Assembly: GCF_006345805.1 (NCBI RefSeq)
Contig: NC_043007.1
Coordinates: forward strand, 56,172,001-56,236,000
DNA length: 64,000 nucleotides
Source: Octopus sinensis
Lineage: Eukaryota
Direction: 5' to 3'
The translations under genes and the position numbers were made by a program. Under the pieces are notes generated by a model, which saw nothing but the letters and a program-made list of their open reading frames with translations, searched no databases and was not told the DNA's origin. The stretch's first letter is position 1. Every line of letters starts with the position of its first letter. Positions 5,342 through 53,214 of the stretch are shown one piece after another.

Positions 5342-5619
5342 TGTAGTACAAGTAGAAAGACATATTTTGCAAAGCGTAAGTACTGATAGAACAGCATATA
5401 TACAGGATAAAATCTTTACTGAACAGAAAATGTTTTTCAGCAACCAGTCATGAGACTTTACCATGGTAAAGCACTTTGACCGTAAACTGAAGGGATGTGA
5501 GTTCGAGTTTCATAGCTGGCTGCTGACAAATTTTTCTACTCTGTAAGGATTTTATCCTATATATGCTGTTCTATCAGTACTACGCGTTGAAAAAAATATA
5601 TCTTTCTACTTGTAGTACA
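5342..5619. repeat. Imperfect fold-back (about 115-bp arms) with tRNA-like loop
   Basis: tgtagtacaagtagaaaga...gtactgatagaacagcatata...ccagtcatgagact pairs with agtttcatagctgg...tatatgctgttctatcagtac...tctttctacttgtagtaca. Confidence 0.85.
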
Positions 5620-6294
5620 ATACATTTTAGCGCTTCAAAAACAAACTTACGTTTGTTTACATATGATATAATTTGTATGTATGTATATAAATAATCCAAA
5701 TTTAGGGAAAGGAGCCGGTAAATTCCAAGCAGAACCTCAAAAGTAGTAATTGCTCAAAGGAGAGGTACTCCTCTAGGTACTTATCAGGTCGAAGATATCT
5801 TAGTCAAATGAAGGTTACATTGTCGTTAAGGAATCCCAAGTAAACTCGCAGGGGATTTGATCAAAAATGCATTTTCGATCAAATCTCCTGCTTGGCTACG
5901 GGGACATAGAACAAAGCAAGTGGTGAGGAGGCACAAAACACACACACACTCACACACACACACACATGCACACACACGCACACACGCACACACACACACA
6001 CATACACACACACACACACACACACACACACGCATATACACCACTGGCTTCTTTCTGTTTCCGTCTACTAAATCCACTCAGGAGGCTTTGGCTGAGCAGC
6101 AAACCACACATCCATACGCACAGACACATACATGCACGCCCACCCACTCATGTGCCCACACACGCACGAACACACACACATTAACACAATTGCTTTTATC
6201 CATACACATCCATATTTATATATAGATCGATGGATGTGCATGTGTGGGTGCGCACACGCATAGGTGTGGATGTCTTATATTTTACTTGGATCAG

Positions 6295-6900
6295 TTCAGG
6301 AAAGGCATTTCAAAAAAGAATGCTAAGACTGGACGGACGAAGTGAAAACGCGTGTAATTCTGAGGAAACTAGCAACGATAGAGCATGAAAAATATTGTAA
6401 GTTTATATTGCCTAAAAAAGTTTCTGATATACATTTCACGGACACAATTTTCATTTTATGTAGGATGTTCATTGCAAAAACGTATTTGAACACTGAAGAA
6501 AGCGATGACGAAATATTTAACACATATGCGGGTAGAGTGAGCAGAGGGTGCGAGATTTAAACTAGATAAACTAACTCCAGACTCGTTCAAAGTGTCTGAG
6601 TTTTGCTCAGAAACTTACTGCCTCGAAGGTGACTCCTTTTTCTTCTGGGTCATATTTAAATTCATTTATTGAATTCGCTACATGGTTTGGCGGAAACGTA
6701 TTTTCCGGTTTTGTTACCAACTTCATTAGTTGCATCATTTGTTGCTAAAACATTTGTTGTTCTTGTTGTTCTTTGAGTTGTTGTGGTTGCTGTTTTTGCA
6801 ATATGTACAGCAAAAATGTTTGTTACTTCTCTGTCACGTTTTTAATTTCTCCACGTGAAAAGTTTTTCAATGTCGACTGCGTAAATGGCTTATTTTCAAC
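6295..6900. pseudogene. Ty3/Gypsy gag remnant split by an inversion
   Basis: Minus strand 6900-6615: QQQ-rich then NSINEFKYDPEEKGVTFEA. Plus strand 6300-6600: WTDEVKTRVILRKLATIEHEKYCKFILPKK...TYAGRV...FKLDKLTPDSFK. Both are typical of invertebrate Gypsy gag. Confidence 0.7.
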
Positions 6901-48704: not shown

Positions 48705-49630
48705 TACACACGCGCGCACTCTCTCTCTCTCTCTCTCTCTCTCTCTCTCTCTCTCTCACACACACACACACACACATATACACACACATGCATATTTGTG
48801 TGTGTGTGTGTGTGCGTGTGTGTTTGTGTGTGTGTGTCTTTGTGTCTGTGCTTGTTCCCTCATCTCCGCTTGACAACCGTTGATAGAATAAGTACTAGGC
48901 CTAAGGCGGTGCTCTAGCACGGCCGCAGTGACAAGTTAAAAAATAAAAGAATACATGTATGCATGTGTGTGTATGCGTATGTATGTATATATATATATAT
49001 ATATATATATATATATATATATATATTATATATATATATATATATAATATATATATATATTGTGTGTGTGTGTGTGTGGTGTGTGTGTGTGTATGTTTAT
49101 ATATAATTTTGTAATTTTAAACATGATGCCAAAATATCAGCTACAGATTAATAACAATTTACCATATGACATATGATATGAAACATAATAGGAAAAAGTA
49201 AATAAAATCTGTGGGTTATGGTATTATAGCCAACGAGACGAGTGAATCCAACTAAAAAGCGAAACTGTGTGGTCAACTTGTTTTGTTGAAACTTCAACCC
49301 TATTCAACTGCACACTGATAGGTAAAATACAGTTGTCTCCCTTACATACTGGAAGCATGCTAACTTCAGCTACGCTTTCCAATGAATATAGTTTATGACA
49401 TTTACAGAAAAGTGAAACTGATCAAATATATGGAAGTTCATATATGAACATAAACAGTCTGCTAGTTCGGCTAAAGAAGAACAGGTTTGTTAAATAAAAA
49501 GAGAGAAAATAAAGTTTAGTTGGCTGCTGGTAATGGTCAGACTACGGATGGTTAGGTAAACAGATAGATAAGAAGACAGATAGACAAACAGAGAAACAGC
49601 GACAAAGACAAACAGACAGTTAGATAGATA

Positions 49631-51887
49631 TATTAAGCCACACAAGGCCGAATACAAAGGGGACGAATACAATGTAGAGGTTTACTTTTCGTAGAAAAAG
49701 AGGAGGAAAAAATTCTGATCAAAAGGGATCGTGTATCAGAACAGAATAAAAATGTAAAAAACAGATTAGGTTTGTCCGTGGAAATAAAATCCTACGAAAA
49801 AGACTACCGTAACCTCAGGCAAGGAGGGAAAAAACACATGAGAGCAAAGTGTTCTCTCTCTCTCCCTCTTTTGGATTTACAGGATCATGCTCAAAGTGGT
49901 TTCGTCATTCGAGGGTACCATCTTTGCTACATTCACTCACCTTTTATCGCATCTTTCATGAGACAAAACTTTCCTCTCTATCTTACCTTCCTTTTCATGT
50001 AAAAGTTGATGAACTATTGGCTAGAGACGAAAGTGTTTGTCTCTAAATCTTTCGCTCGAGTCCACCACACACATTCTTTCACAATGGCCACCAGTACGAT
50101 GAAAACTGCATTGCCTTCTCGCTTAAGAGAAGGTGGCGGGGCAATTTTCACGATAGACTCGACCGACAACCGATTTCGTCTCACATGTGACAGTAGCAGC
50201 CATTCGGCATAAGCCCACAGGTCCGAAATGGTTGGACACTGCACGAATGCGTGCAGAACGTTTTCATCGCTCTGACCGCATCTCGGGCAAGTCGGTCCGG
50301 TGTATCTCGAACGGGCAATGCTACCCGATAGCACTTCCAGGCCAGGGATCTCTGGTGATTCTCCATAGGTCCCAGCCAGAAAGTTGTCCTGAACAGACGG
50401 GTCAGGTGTTCTTCGTCGACGCCCAGATTCTCCCCGAGAACGTCGTCGCTCTTCCCCTCCACTAATCCTCTATAGAACGCCTTCGTGGAATTGAAGTCGC
50501 ATAAGTTTGGTCCCGGACGGTAGGGTTGCGGGAAAGCGTGCCTGACAAACGGCGACTACACCTGTTCACCGTCGTCTATGAAGCGCCGGAGATATCGCAG
50601 TCTCGGTGCATGTCTGTGCATCATCAACCACGACATGCCCAGCCCTCCATTTAGTGGGTGTTGACCGCAAATGGATCGCCTAACCATCGGAACGCTTCCC
50701 TTCCACAAAAAGCGGAAGAGTATATGTTCCAGTTTGGTGATGGAAGAGTATACGTTGCAGTTTGGTAACGCTCAGAGGGTAATTGATGACGGATGCGATG
50801 TACACATTCGCTACCTTCGTCCGATCTTTTAGGAATAGCTTCCTCTCGGCCACACTACTCGTTATCTCGTCCCAGTTCTTCTCCATTTGGAGGTCCGGTC
50901 CGAACCAGACCCCTAGCAATTTAACCGGTCCGTCGGTCCAGCGTCCCACGATGGAGACGTTCTTGGACGGCAATGGGCTTGCTTCTCCGGGTGCCGAGCC
51001 GCAAGCCCACTGACTTTTCCCAGTTAATTTTCGCTCCCATTACCGCTTTGTATTCTTTTAGTGTCTCGCCGACCAGGTCGATATGCCGGGTGACGTATGC
51101 AGACACGCTCCTACAGCATCCCAGTTCTCGCGGGATACGACTCAGCGTCGCCAGCTTCTGCAATAGTGGCTCTAGAGTTAATACATACAGAAGCGACGAG
51201 AGGGTGCATCCTTGACGGACAGAACGCGTGATGTTAAATGGTCTGGACAGGTAACCATTTACGCAAACTGCCGAGCGGATGTCACTGTTTCAGGCAGCGA
51301 TCCAACCGCGGAAGATAGCACCGAAATCAGCCGCTCTAAGGACAGCCTCCAAGTAGTGATGGTCGACTCTATCGAAAGCTTTTGATTGATCCAAATTGAT
51401 TAGCGCTCCACCCATGCCAGGTTCCCAATCTATGATGTAACGCATCAAATGGAGGTTGTCATGGATATTCCTGCTCGGCACGGTGCATGTTTGCTCCTTG
51501 TTGACCAGTTTCTCGATGACAAGCGCCAACCTCCAGGTTAGCACTTTGGCCAAAATCTTCAAATCTGCTTTCAGCAGAGTGATGGGCCTGCAGTTATCTA
51601 TGACGTTCCCCTTGTTTGGATCTTTGTTTAACAGTGCCACTGCTCCTCTCTTCATAGAAACGAGGATACTTCCGTTTTGCTGCCAGTTGCAGTAGACTGC
51701 TGCCAAGACACCTCCAAACAAGTCTGGCAAGTGACAATAGAGCTCATAGGGCAGACCATCCAAGTCTTGTCTCCCGCGCAGCCTGCTATCGCATCCCGTA
51801 CGTCCGCGGCCGTGATGGATCTTTCACAACACTCCGCCTCTCTTGCTGAGAGTCGTGGCAGGCCATGCAGGTAGGCACTAAAGTCCA
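49631..51887 (-). mobile_element. 5'-truncated degenerate Tx1 LINE flanked by (GATA)n
   Basis: DGLPYELY, RPITLL, LDQSKAFDRVDH, CPRCGQSDENVLHAFVQC. (GATA)n at 51888-51968 and degenerate GATA/GACA at 49560-49630. Confidence 0.92.
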
Positions 51888-53214
51888 GATAGATAGATAG
51901 ATAGATAGATAGATAGATAGATAGATAGATAGATAGATAGATAGATAGATAGATAGATAGATAGATAGACAGACAGACAAACAGACAGACAGATAGACAA
52001 ACAGACGGACAGACTGGTGTGTGGAGAGGAGTATAGAGTAGTAAGAATGAGCAGATTACACGTAAATAAACGGGGACTTGACAAGGCTTGAAGAATAGCT
52101 GATTGGATAGACAAACAAGCACTAGTGGCATCCGTCGATAATCAATAGTTTTGATAAAACTAAGGGTGAAAATGCGCCATGAGTGGAAGCAAGCGAGGTC
52201 ATTGAATAACTGACGTGAAATTCGTTAGTTGGCAGTATTAAGTTGATATTCTCCGGCAAAAAAATGCTGTTTGAGGATTCATGAATGTTTAGAGATGAGA
52301 AGGGATCCGTATGTTGCAACAATGTCCGTTAGAAAGATCTTTCACACCGTATAATGATTTTCCAACCAATAAACTGAATCGGAGTGTGTGTAGGTATGTG
52401 TATTGTGTGCGCGTGTGTGCGGGTGTGTATGTGTGTGTGCGCGCGCACACGTGCGTATGTGTATGTATGTGTGGGTAGGTATGTGTGTGAGTGTGTGTGT
52501 GTATAGGTGTAGGTGTGTAGTAGGGTGTGAGTGCGTATTCCCAACCAATAAACTGAAATATGCACTGTAATTATCGAGATCGTTGCCCTCGAATTTCAAA
52601 ATCTGTAGAACAATTCTAGATGTGTACATTATCCCTGACTGGATTCGAACTAAGAATTTATAACTCTAATTAGTAGTAGTGCCGATATCTACCTTAAGAG
52701 GTAAGTACCGACATTACTACTACTGATATATCAAACCAACATAGGATAGATATTGTAAATATCGTATAAATATAAATAACTATTAGCATAAAGCTAATAG
52801 TCAGGTGATAGAAATTAGTTTTCTACATTTGATATATAGGGTCAACCTTAAGGATACACGTTAAGTGTACCTCTGTGAGTGGAATACTGAACCTCTTATA
52901 AGCTAATTTAACGAAGAGGAACTCAGCTGGCTAAACAACTGAATGAATGCAGACACACACACACACATTTTCTTTAGTTTTATTTGCTGAGTGTGACGGA
53001 AACGACGGAGATGAATATGCTTGATCTGTTTAAATTGTTGCAGGTAATTACCAGCAGGAAAGACATGAGCATGAGGAGATTCCAGCGAGACGGTGATCAG
53101 GGTGGAAGGACTGGGAACCGACTAAGGGGTGGTTCAGTGCAACAGCGGTTACGAGAGAGAGAGGAAGGTTACAAGAAGAGGTACGAGAAAGCCTACTCCC
53201 TGGAACACAGAGCA

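Follow-up and report, generated by a model that had tools for sequence, protein, structure and literature searches.

The window, by which we mean the whole 64-kb stretch of Octopus sinensis DNA analysed here, holds eleven segments that the first-pass annotation had listed as fold-backs. Seven of them each represent the insertion of a different short, non-coding, high-copy repeat family, the families being unrelated to one another; the other four have no connection with these. The features referred to throughout the text are the following.

5240-5338, no strand: (ATGT)n microsatellite (TRF), next to the family 1 end that stops at the short site
5342-5458, minus strand: inverted 5′-truncated arm of family 1, ending at the short site beside the microsatellite; reverse complement of about 5503-5619
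About 5435-5508: remnant of the tRNA-like head of family 1, overlapping the junction of the two copies
5459-5693, plus strand: main copy of family 1, with body arm 5503-5619 and one-sided tail 5620-5693; the most abundant matches span 5463-5693
5848-5891, no strand: single-copy 44-nt hairpin, matching only itself in the genome search
15317-15361, minus strand: two short inverted stretches (about 20 nt) resembling the 3′-terminal bases of family 2, read from the sequence and at chance level alone (E=3.5)
15364-15637, plus strand: family 2 unit, stopping at the short 3′ site, then (TA)n from 15638
About 15397-15477: mutated hammerhead-like core of family 2, its box reading CTTAGGA (15422-15428)
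16061-16140, minus strand: one-sided tail of family 3 beyond the left arm, conserved in loci L002, L005 and L010
16141-16310, no strand: head-to-head pair of family 3, both copies strongly 5′-truncated; arms about 16135-16208 and 16243-16316
16315-16436: (TATG)n after the short end of family 3
22981-23110, minus strand: family 4 copy with arm 23036-23076; tail leftward, 22981-23039 and beyond
23116-23231, plus strand: second copy of family 4, ending at the short site, then (TA)n 23225-23253 (TRF)
23381-23590, minus strand: inverted 5′-truncated copy of family 5, with a 78-nt arm and a tail of about 132 nt
23586-24202, plus strand: main copy of family 5, lacking about 90 nt of the 5′ end and stopping at the short 3′ site
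27064-27237, no strand: single-copy perfect palindrome, 81-nt arms 100% complementary, 12-nt spacer
37654-37985, no strand: no significant inverted repeat, a chance match; the sole overlap is with an old low-copy repeat, on the right
40884-41111, no strand: family 6 insertion, with (TA) run 40884-40900, fold-back 40901-41052 and one-sided 59-nt tail 41053-41111
41112-41193: (TG)n downstream of the family 6 tail
42845-43097, no strand: family 7 insertion, with tail 42845-42936 and fold-back 42937-43089
52671-52722, no strand: single-copy weak hairpin at chance level

Inverted repeats were sought by aligning the window to its own reverse complement with blastn (dust on, pairs within 1.2 kb), with E-values computed for a 64 kb × 64 kb space and significance set at E<1e-3. 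Eight of the eleven claimed fold-backs do contain a significant inverted repeat and three do not rise above chance. The alignments cover 302 nt at 74.8% identity for 5342-5619, 44 nt at 90.9% for 5848-5891, 185 nt at 81.1% for 16141-16310, 183 nt at 72% for 40901-41052 and 155 nt at 78.7% for 42937-43089; the arms measure 41 nt at 82.9% (E=5.5e-4) for 23040-23227 and 78 nt at 91% for 23519-24196. At chance level in the same scan are 15317-15626 (21-nt arms, E=3.5) and 52671-52722 (E=0.99), and 37654-37985 gave no inverted-repeat match at all. The scan also revealed fold-backs of equal or larger size, absent from the earlier list, at 1060-1549, 19445-20184 and 32286-33745.

The segments beginning at 5848, 27064, 37654 and 52671 fall outside the proposed class, being single-copy hairpins or chance matches. 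The perfect palindrome at 27064-27237 is a young local inverted duplication, derived and lineage-specific: organism D has 706 other letters in place of the left arm, and organism E gives no coverage of that arm. This single-copy segment with its perfect arms is what one would expect if palindromes arose locally and without mobility through errors of replication or repair, such as fold-back priming after a break. As an account of the class as a whole that origin is very improbable, and for the seven families it is refuted by 50 to at least 4938 related copies on many chromosomes.

Copies were counted as first-look candidates in the organism's own 2.72-Gb genome and, since no more than 40 were scored per family, these counts are lower bounds: at least 1619, 3248, 50, 1101, 4938, 2213 and 1421 for families 1 to 7, respectively. 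The genome copies of family 5 are 82-89% identical. The assertion that the segments share no evident sequence was borne out, as none of the eight defined units matches another unit or a second site in the window. On the other hand, they had been taken for ultra-short Penelope-like elements (PLEs), and turn out to be copies of non-autonomous units of 200-850 bp present in thousands of copies. The segment boundaries given previously were also mostly wrong on one side, homology between copies extending 59-132 nt past one arm in the window copies of all seven repeat families.

In these families the inverted repeat is a pair of copies of a single unit, arranged 5′ end to 5′ end, and one member of the pair is usually 5′-truncated; in three families or more, the truncation point varies by locus. 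Of the two outer (3′) ends, one is a fixed short site and the other continues into a family-specific tail of 59-184 nt; the two 3′ end types are shown for family 2. In this family the junctions differ by locus (for example, unit positions 162|277, 182|368, 204|375 and 331|154, with gaps of 0-30 nt), and family 3 shows nested 5′ truncation, with longer copies elsewhere colinear over 432 nt. Many loci carry a single copy only, and full single units of families 2 and 5 have a sharp 5′ end. In the match tables of families 1, 2 and 5 (59, 63 and 50 rows; spacing up to 700 nt), neighbouring copies form 39 head-to-head pairs, 25 pairs of the same orientation and one reverse pair, which sits inside a duplicated pair. 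Same-orientation arrangements, candidates for the partial tandems that form pseudo-LTRs in PLEs, include a recurrent layout of family 1, [192-340]-75 nt-[125-310], and a partial tandem of unit, tail, spacer and unit of family 2 in loci L026 and L035. A survey of end types at 60 loci of the seven families yielded 32 head-to-head dimers and no reverse ones, with 42 short and 51 tailed outer ends. Twenty-five of the 32 dimers combine a short and a tailed end, a proportion that may be inflated since the surveyed loci were chosen by likeness to the window copies, themselves short-plus-tail dimers; four others have two tails and three have two short ends.

Head-to-head order would also result from the long terminal inverted repeats of any element, and small MITEs or fold-back DNA transposons, whose long TIRs would serve as transposase binding sites and whose (TA)n flanks would reflect the TA target of Tc1/mariner-derived Stowaway-like elements, have to be considered. 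Family 6 comes closest to this picture: its length is constant (197-258 nt), its junction is identical in every copy, its flanks are TA-rich on both sides and the copy at L070 is fully symmetric with a tail at each end. The shared junction implies that this fold-back came from a source copy instead of being remade at each insertion, a point against the PLE mobilisation favoured below. In all seven families, however, the inverted repeat is non-terminal on one side, where homology runs on for 59-184 nt past the arm, and in the asymmetric majority (25 of 32) neither end is an inverted copy of the other. Families 1, 2 and 3 differ from locus to locus in junction and arm length, many loci hold one full unit with a sharp 5′ end, and partial copies in the same orientation occur often (25 pairs). 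Among the flanks of 27 dimers, many of which are microsatellite, there was one 9-nt candidate target-site duplication (TSD; L015) and otherwise none that was clear. Ordinary MITEs with fixed TIRs and TSDs, which had been named as the outcome that would overturn the first interpretation, were not found, the repeats being non-terminal on one side and no fixed TSD being seen in these often microsatellite flanks. A tRNA-like head in family 1 and a hammerhead-like core in family 2 speak against DNA transposons as well, and we regard such an origin as quite unlikely.

A microsatellite adjoins five of the eleven segments, and the earlier statement that most of them abut (TA)n or (TATG)n was too strong. 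The five are 5342 with (ATGT)n at 5240-5338, 15317 and 23040 with (TA)n, 16141 with (TATG)n, and 40901, preceded by 17 nt of (TA) that start at 40884. Across the surveyed loci a microsatellite follows 27 of 42 short and 23 of 51 tailed outer ends, whereas among random 30-mers drawn from these loci the fraction is 0.13 (binomial test, p=1.6e-14 for short and 2e-8 for tailed ends). The motif varies within a family and microsatellites occur at both outer ends; in family 6, (TA)n lies on the left in all eight copies and a (TA) run directly past the right end in five of eight. Such flanks may reflect a target preference or the birth of microsatellites at the ends.

Two of the families carry RNA-type features. 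The CUGANGA box of the family 2 motif is intact in eight of 14 aligned copies. Scored against Rfam Hammerhead_3 the motif reaches 16.8 bits, where the gathering score is 48.5, and no hammerhead at the gathering score was found in the window or in 14 loci. A type-I-like reading leaves 88% of cells paired, with covariation not beyond that of shuffles, and helix I is not canonical. No recurrent hammerhead core was detected in the six other families. The description of the segments as retrozyme-like applies to at most one family in seven, since the motif occurs in a single family and scores below threshold there. The tRNA-like head of family 1 scores above the Rfam gathering score for tRNA at loci L013 and L018 (39.1 and 32.1 bits), and ARAGORN reports a tRNA-Ser-like structure in three of the four family loci scanned; neither program detected it in the window copy.

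This head makes family 1 resemble classical SINEs, and the units could be SINEs mobilised by LINEs such as RTE or CR1-type partners, with microsatellite-like 3′ tails and with inverted pairs produced by twin priming, template switching or nested insertion. The window does contain four APE/RT LINE copies. A tRNA-derived SINE at 19871-20245 (at least 9299 candidates, one type of 3′ end), which served as an internal control, is itself head-to-head with a partner in the window and in locus L130. In L1 twin priming, however, it is another part of the element that becomes inverted, and the 3′ end stays single. The control SINE, moreover, showed up without a neighbouring second copy at 39 other loci, and the units have no sequence in common with the four window LINEs. 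Microsatellite-like 3′ ends are known in RTE-related SINEs and LINEs (PMC6007223), but here the flanking motif varies within a family and both outer ends are flanked. Furthermore, PMC11167929 describes the presence of two fixed 3′ ends, each on its own arm, as specific to PLEs. Mobilisation by LINEs is, in our view, unlikely.

PLE machinery is abundant in the genome. GIY-YIG domains number at least 5029 first-look candidates, of which 147 of the 150 scored pass, and the longest PLE frames, in which RVT_1 precedes GIY-YIG, extend to 883 aa, some RT-EN frames being intact; direct repeats flank the PLE ORFs. The seven units are non-coding and contain no PLE RT or GIY-YIG ORF, and in a scan of the window only APE-type LINEs came up. 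A blastn comparison of the units with 30 PLE loci of 3.2 kb and 20 of 8.8 kb, a weak test given that these 50 loci are a small and biased sample of the candidates, returned only low-complexity and unrelated SINE matches. The proposal that the arms are 3′ ends of PLE pseudo-LTRs thus found no backing, no arm matching any of the 50 loci from the same genome.

What connects the families to PLEs is the form of the insertions. PMC8557442 describes PLE insertions as biased towards (TA)n, tailed at one end and preceded at the 5′ end by an inverted, 5′-truncated copy. In PMC11167929, the PLE protein cuts and extends both strands of AT-rich targets, and two internal start sites of reverse transcription delimit the tail. 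Seven of the eleven segments carry this footprint of endonuclease-bearing PLEs, so that the idea of PLE-type insertions from many families survives for them and lapses for the four outside the class. We therefore favour, as the probable explanation, that the seven families are short retroelements copied into AT-rich or microsatellite DNA by PLE enzymes. The PLE protein would cut both target strands, and reverse transcription of the element RNA would be primed from both break ends, at one of two internal RNA sites. The two cDNAs would grow toward each other and be joined mid-way. Such two-sided priming would account for the inverted repeat as well as for a junction that varies and a tail confined to one side, and the hairpin potential would be a by-product of integration rather than a function. 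Integration of this sort is a known kind of event, and a PLE is the likely mobiliser; since the units share no sequence with the 50 PLE loci, we infer this mobiliser.

A broader and distinctly more tentative suggestion is that PLE enzymes, and not LINEs, drive a whole guild of unrelated short elements, most of them without a ribozyme and one of them a tRNA-headed SINE of pol-III type. Integration might then obey a strand rule, with a proximal start on one side of the break and a distal one 59-184 nt further on the other, each event leaving a hairpin-forming dimer and seeding or extending a microsatellite. If this were true, PLE integration would be one of the main sources of the hairpins and of the unusual microsatellite load of this genome.

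Compared with known systems, the families share with Stowaway- or Tourist-like MITEs their small size, non-coding character, inverted repeats, high copy number and TA-rich flanks; they differ in an inverted repeat that is non-terminal on one side, in variable junctions, and in common single units, and no fixed TSD was seen at the flanks of the 27 dimers, many of which are microsatellite. Like tRNA-derived SINEs such as the one at 19871-20245, family 1 combines a tRNA-like 5′ head, a body and a family-specific 3′ part; it differs from that classical SINE in forming head-to-head dimers and in having two types of 3′ end. Animal non-LTR retrozymes and non-autonomous PLE derivatives, as presented in bioRxiv 10.64898/2026.07.22.740005 and, for the Chlamys elements, in PMC8557442, are likewise short, non-coding and thought to depend on PLEs, and family 2 resembles the retrozymes there in its hammerhead-like core and in the partial tandems of L026 and L035; unlike them, six of the seven families are without a hammerhead core, and the motif of family 2 is sub-threshold with a non-canonical helix I. 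PLEs themselves differ from the units described here, which are non-coding, 200-850 nt long and without sequence in common with 50 PLE loci of their own genome, and whose tails of 59-184 nt exceed the 30-40 nt published for PLEs, where pLTRs occur and the tail is optional (PMC8557442, PMC3846280 and PMC11167929). These three sources describe the endonuclease-bearing PLE layout as having neither terminal inverted repeats nor a fixed TSD. Naiads are without hammerheads, as are most families here. As described there, Penelope/Poseidon, Neptune, Nematis and Naiad elements share with the seven families TSDs that are hard to read, AT-rich or microsatellite flanks, partial same-orientation copies and a head-to-head copy with variable 5′ truncation and a tail on one arm only.

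Seven of the eleven fold-back segments that the first-pass annotation had listed in the window are members of high-copy families. The 2.72-Gb assembly of this eukaryotic genome was searched with each segment plus its flanks; the numbers of first-look candidates, the matches of the initial search pass, are minima, since no more than 40 were scored per search. The listed class does not hold as a whole, one third of the list not being members. Among these, the hairpin at 5848-5891 and the region 26964-27337 matched only themselves, the hairpin at 52671-52722 yielded no further copy, and the 10 candidates for 37554-38085 matched part of that segment but not its ends. 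The seven families are given below with their tails, the family-specific extensions past one of the two arms.

Repeat families at seven of the listed fold-back segments (query, candidates in the genome, tail)
Family 1: query 5339-5937; at least 1619 candidates; tail 5620-5693, 74 nt
Family 2: query 15217-15637; at least 3248 candidates; window copy stops at the short site, tail about 65 nt in other copies
Family 3: query 16141-16310; at least 50 candidates; tail 16061-16140, 80 nt
Family 4: query 22981-23224; at least 1101 candidates; tail 22981-23039, at least 59 nt
Family 5: query 23459-24256; at least 4938 candidates; tail 23381-23512, about 132 nt, up to 184 nt in copies elsewhere
Family 6: query 40861-41111; at least 2213 candidates; tail 41053-41111, 59 nt
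Family 7: query 42837-43289; at least 1421 candidates; tail 42845-42936, 92 nt

An opposite-strand self-comparison of the window returned a significant inverted repeat in 8 of the 11 segments, but in the other three the claimed fold-back was at chance level (15317-15626, with 21-nt arms and E=3.5; 52671-52722, E=0.99) or gave no match (37654-37985). That the segments share no sequence was borne out, the eight defined units having no matches to one another or elsewhere in the window. The proposed boundaries had to be moved, as homology between copies continues beyond the listed inverted repeat in every family, and does so on one side. Since this tail lies beyond the arm on one side only, the inverted repeat is not terminal. 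It consists of two copies of one unit, and single units with a sharp 5′ boundary occur at many loci. Longer copies of family 3 are colinear inside (432 nt, locus L002 versus L004), so that the copies form a nested series with the short one in the window as its most truncated member. When families 4 and 5 were traced outward along their tails, the homology of family 5 stopped after about 850 nt and no ORF was found.

The relative orientation of the two units is far from random. In the hit tables of families 1, 2 and 5 (50, 59 or 63 rows per table, neighbours at most 700 nt apart, self rows and rows matching only the query's own inverted arm left out), 39 neighbouring pairs turn the same ends towards one another, 25 share one orientation and a single pair is reversed, lying inside a duplicated pair on contig C4. 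The facing ends are variable; examples of joined unit positions in family 2 are 162|277, 182|368, 204|375 and 331|154, where 0-30 nt separate the two copies. The ends that point outward are constant. Together these features amount to 5′ truncation of copies whose 3′ end is fixed. We typed these 3′ ends at 60 loci, anchoring on the tail and the final 60 nt of the arm; the loci of the window itself and four duplicates were left out. This gave 42 short ends, i.e. fixed outer stops, and 51 tailed ends. Among the 32 head-to-head dimers, in which the 5′ ends of two copies face each other, 25 carry one short and one tailed end, four have two tails and three have two short ends; in one of the latter (L030) the tail appears by eye to be interrupted by an insertion. 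No dimer with its outer ends turned inward was present among the 60 loci. The excess of mixed dimers (25/32) has p=0.001 against independent end choice, which would give at most one half, for loci that had been chosen by likeness to the mixed window copies.

Such an organization is not that of MITEs, which fail as an explanation of the fold-backs: the inverted repeats are not terminal, the junctions vary, single units exist and the asymmetric form is in the majority. The flanks of 27 dimers yielded a single 9-nt candidate target-site duplication (L015) and no clear one at the other loci, many flanks being microsatellites. Some MITE-like look is kept by family 6 only. Unlike in the other families, its junction and length are identical across all copies, which argues that here the dimer itself was the source.

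The segments had also been said to abut microsatellites for the most part, which is too strong for the list itself, where 5 of the 11 adjoin one. Across the typed loci, 27 of the 42 short ends and 23 of the 51 tailed ends have a simple repeat in the adjoining 30 nt, compared with a fraction of 0.13 for random 30-mers of the same loci, the tailed-end value being an undercount in families 4 and 5 because their tail is longer than the piece used. Family 6 has (TA)n on the left flank in 8/8 copies and a (TA) run straight after the tail in 5/8; of the remaining three, the window copy has (TG)n, another has (CT)n and then (TA)n, and the third a TA-rich sequence without a long run. In other families the motif varies between (TG)n, (TAGA)n, (CT)n and (ATGT)n. 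The flanking repeats may have been insertion targets or may have been born at the junction, and the data fit both. The window, G000:C11:56172001-56236000, is AT-rich (GC about 0.36), with 102 TRF rows and 8.7% of simple repeats according to our own regular expression. It contains four LINE copies, two of which keep long open frames of 729 and 497 aa, and microsatellites lie near the 3′ sides of the copies.

LINE copies in the window
7038-9617, minus strand: APE endonuclease and/or RVT_1, zf-RVT
33939-37135, plus strand: APE endonuclease and/or RVT_1, zf-RVT
50017-52224, minus strand: APE endonuclease and/or RVT_1, zf-RVT
53912-56213, plus strand: APE endonuclease and/or RVT_1, zf-RVT

SINEs mobilised by LINEs and ending in microsatellite tails (PMC6007223) would account for the repeats at 3′ ends, but this explains only part of the data, the paired, asymmetric dimers being left unexplained. 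As a control we used the tRNA-derived SINE at 19871-20245 (at least 9299 candidates), which has a single type of 3′ end with an (AAAGAGT)-like tail. No second copy was found near it in 39 other loci; in the window and at locus L130 it lies head-to-head with a partner. The window pair (19445-20245) has an internal (TA)n(TG)n, its right copy is without about 47 nt of the head, and it constitutes the largest fold-back of the window, absent from the first-pass list. A further 3′ end of this common SINE is found at 15217-15316, directly before family 2.

Fold-backs of equal or greater size than those listed also occur at 1060-1549, 19445-20184 and 32286-33745. The first, an imperfect palindrome of 495 nt, consists of two inverted copies of a unit of ~215 nt (at least 11355 first-look candidates), which elsewhere forms same-orientation arrays (C9:19630381-19631099, four copies). 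The last is a large repeat whose inverted arms align over 456 nt at 70%, and it is set among several microsatellites. The hairpin at 5848-5891 is a single-copy 44-nt element with 20-nt arms of 91% identity (E=5.9e-10 against the window). Different in kind from the seven families is the perfect palindrome at 27064-27237, with 81-nt arms and single-copy in the genome. Its centre was confirmed in short-read contigs of two organisms, A and B, by a 72-nt spacer-centred piece without differences (X1 and X3). In a contig of organism D the left arm (27066-27140) gives way to 706 other letters, and in organism E this arm has no cover, the contigs ending at 27050 and restarting at a breakpoint at 27141. 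The palindrome is likely to be a young inverted duplication, specific to this lineage, that took the place of older sequence. Nearby, contig depth over 26680-26733 summed to roughly 10,000-58,000 in each of the four sequencing runs, which marks this stretch as a piece of an extremely abundant ~50-nt repeat.

We also looked for RNA-type elements. No tRNA gene was found in the window and Rfam gave zero matches across it at gathering score; at E≤10 no hammerhead was present among the best 150 of 230 matches, all of which resembled miRNA families and similar models only through microsatellites or hairpins. The tRNA-like head of family 1 reached 39.1 and 32.1 bits with the Rfam tRNA model and was called by ARAGORN in 3 of the 4 loci scanned. 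Family 2 contains, at one fixed place, a hammerhead-like core consisting of CUGANGA, a two-part helix II and GAAA. By our own strict pattern it is exact in 5 of 11 loci. Of 14 aligned copies, 8 keep the CUGANGA box, which is broken in the window copy (CTTAGGA at 15422). The Rfam Hammerhead_3 model scores 16.8 bits in L031 against a gathering score of 48.5 (E=0.58 on 301 nt). A type-I-like reading pairs 88% of the relevant cells compared with 75% for a type III reading, in which two core-adjacent pairs are unpaired in 11-12 of 14 copies; the type-I-like reading was therefore preferred. Neither reading rises above the shuffles, and helix I is not canonical as read. The motif may thus be a hammerhead. 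No recurrent core was detected in the other six families, and the only match to CUGANGA-helix II-GAAA in the window is spurious, inside a LINE ORF. A canonical-looking core (CTGATGA, 5-bp helix II, GAAA) occurs at L003:1990-2032 (minus strand), ~400 nt from a family 3 copy and within a different repeat. On an unplaced contig, a family 2 copy adjoins a eukaryotic LSU rRNA fragment (L025:498-1019, minus strand; Rfam 111.5 bits, model positions 1456-1888).

Potential enzymes for mobilisation are plentiful. A GIY-YIG search of the genome gave at least 5029 candidates, of which 147 of the 150 scored pass, and the longest Penelope-like element (PLE) frames have 883 aa, RVT_1 preceding GIY-YIG. Direct repeats lie on both sides of the PLE ORFs, with an upstream inverted copy at one locus. 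At L127 (G000:C1:207472600-207481400), where the RT-EN frame of the PLE has 781 aa, a 1559-nt stretch upstream of the frame is repeated downstream in the same orientation with 99.3% identity, suggestive of a tandem or pLTR arrangement that is very young. In blastn comparisons with 30 + 20 = 50 PLE loci, no unit had a sequence link to the autonomous elements. What the 19400 and 15217 queries matched at these loci was the common SINE, whose copies have no constant position with respect to the ORF and were read as chance neighbours. The PLE enzymes as mobiliser of the seven families are therefore inferred from the structural footprint alone. The first-pass annotation had recognised a real class and was largely right about its nature, but the class is already known and its PLE link is structural only.

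PLE-type integration is poorly understood and its products are split or mislabelled by standard repeat pipelines. A 2026 Octopus vulgaris annotation (PMC13282606) counts 893 'unclassified SINE' families among recently active elements. The window provides a compact data set of seven independent families with one asymmetric head-to-head footprint, which bears on whether hammerhead-less and tRNA-headed elements can use PLE enzymes. Among the papers listed by a limited literature search, which is not proof of absence, there was no report of tRNA-headed SINEs using these enzymes. The thousands of hairpin-forming loci might also supply RNA editing or small-RNA pathways.

According to PMC8557442, PLE insertions show strong 5′ truncation and partial tandems, with an inverted, 5′-truncated copy at the 5′ end and a tail at one end, and Naiads prefer (TA)n and are without hammerheads. 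Purified PLE protein, according to PMC11167929, cuts and extends both DNA strands, prefers AT-rich DNA and begins reverse transcription at two sites within the RNA, which mark off a tail; our data bear on whether these two in vitro start sites serve one per strand in vivo. The seven families agree with the published PLE footprint in every structural feature tested, and differ from the published elements in that the tails are longer here.
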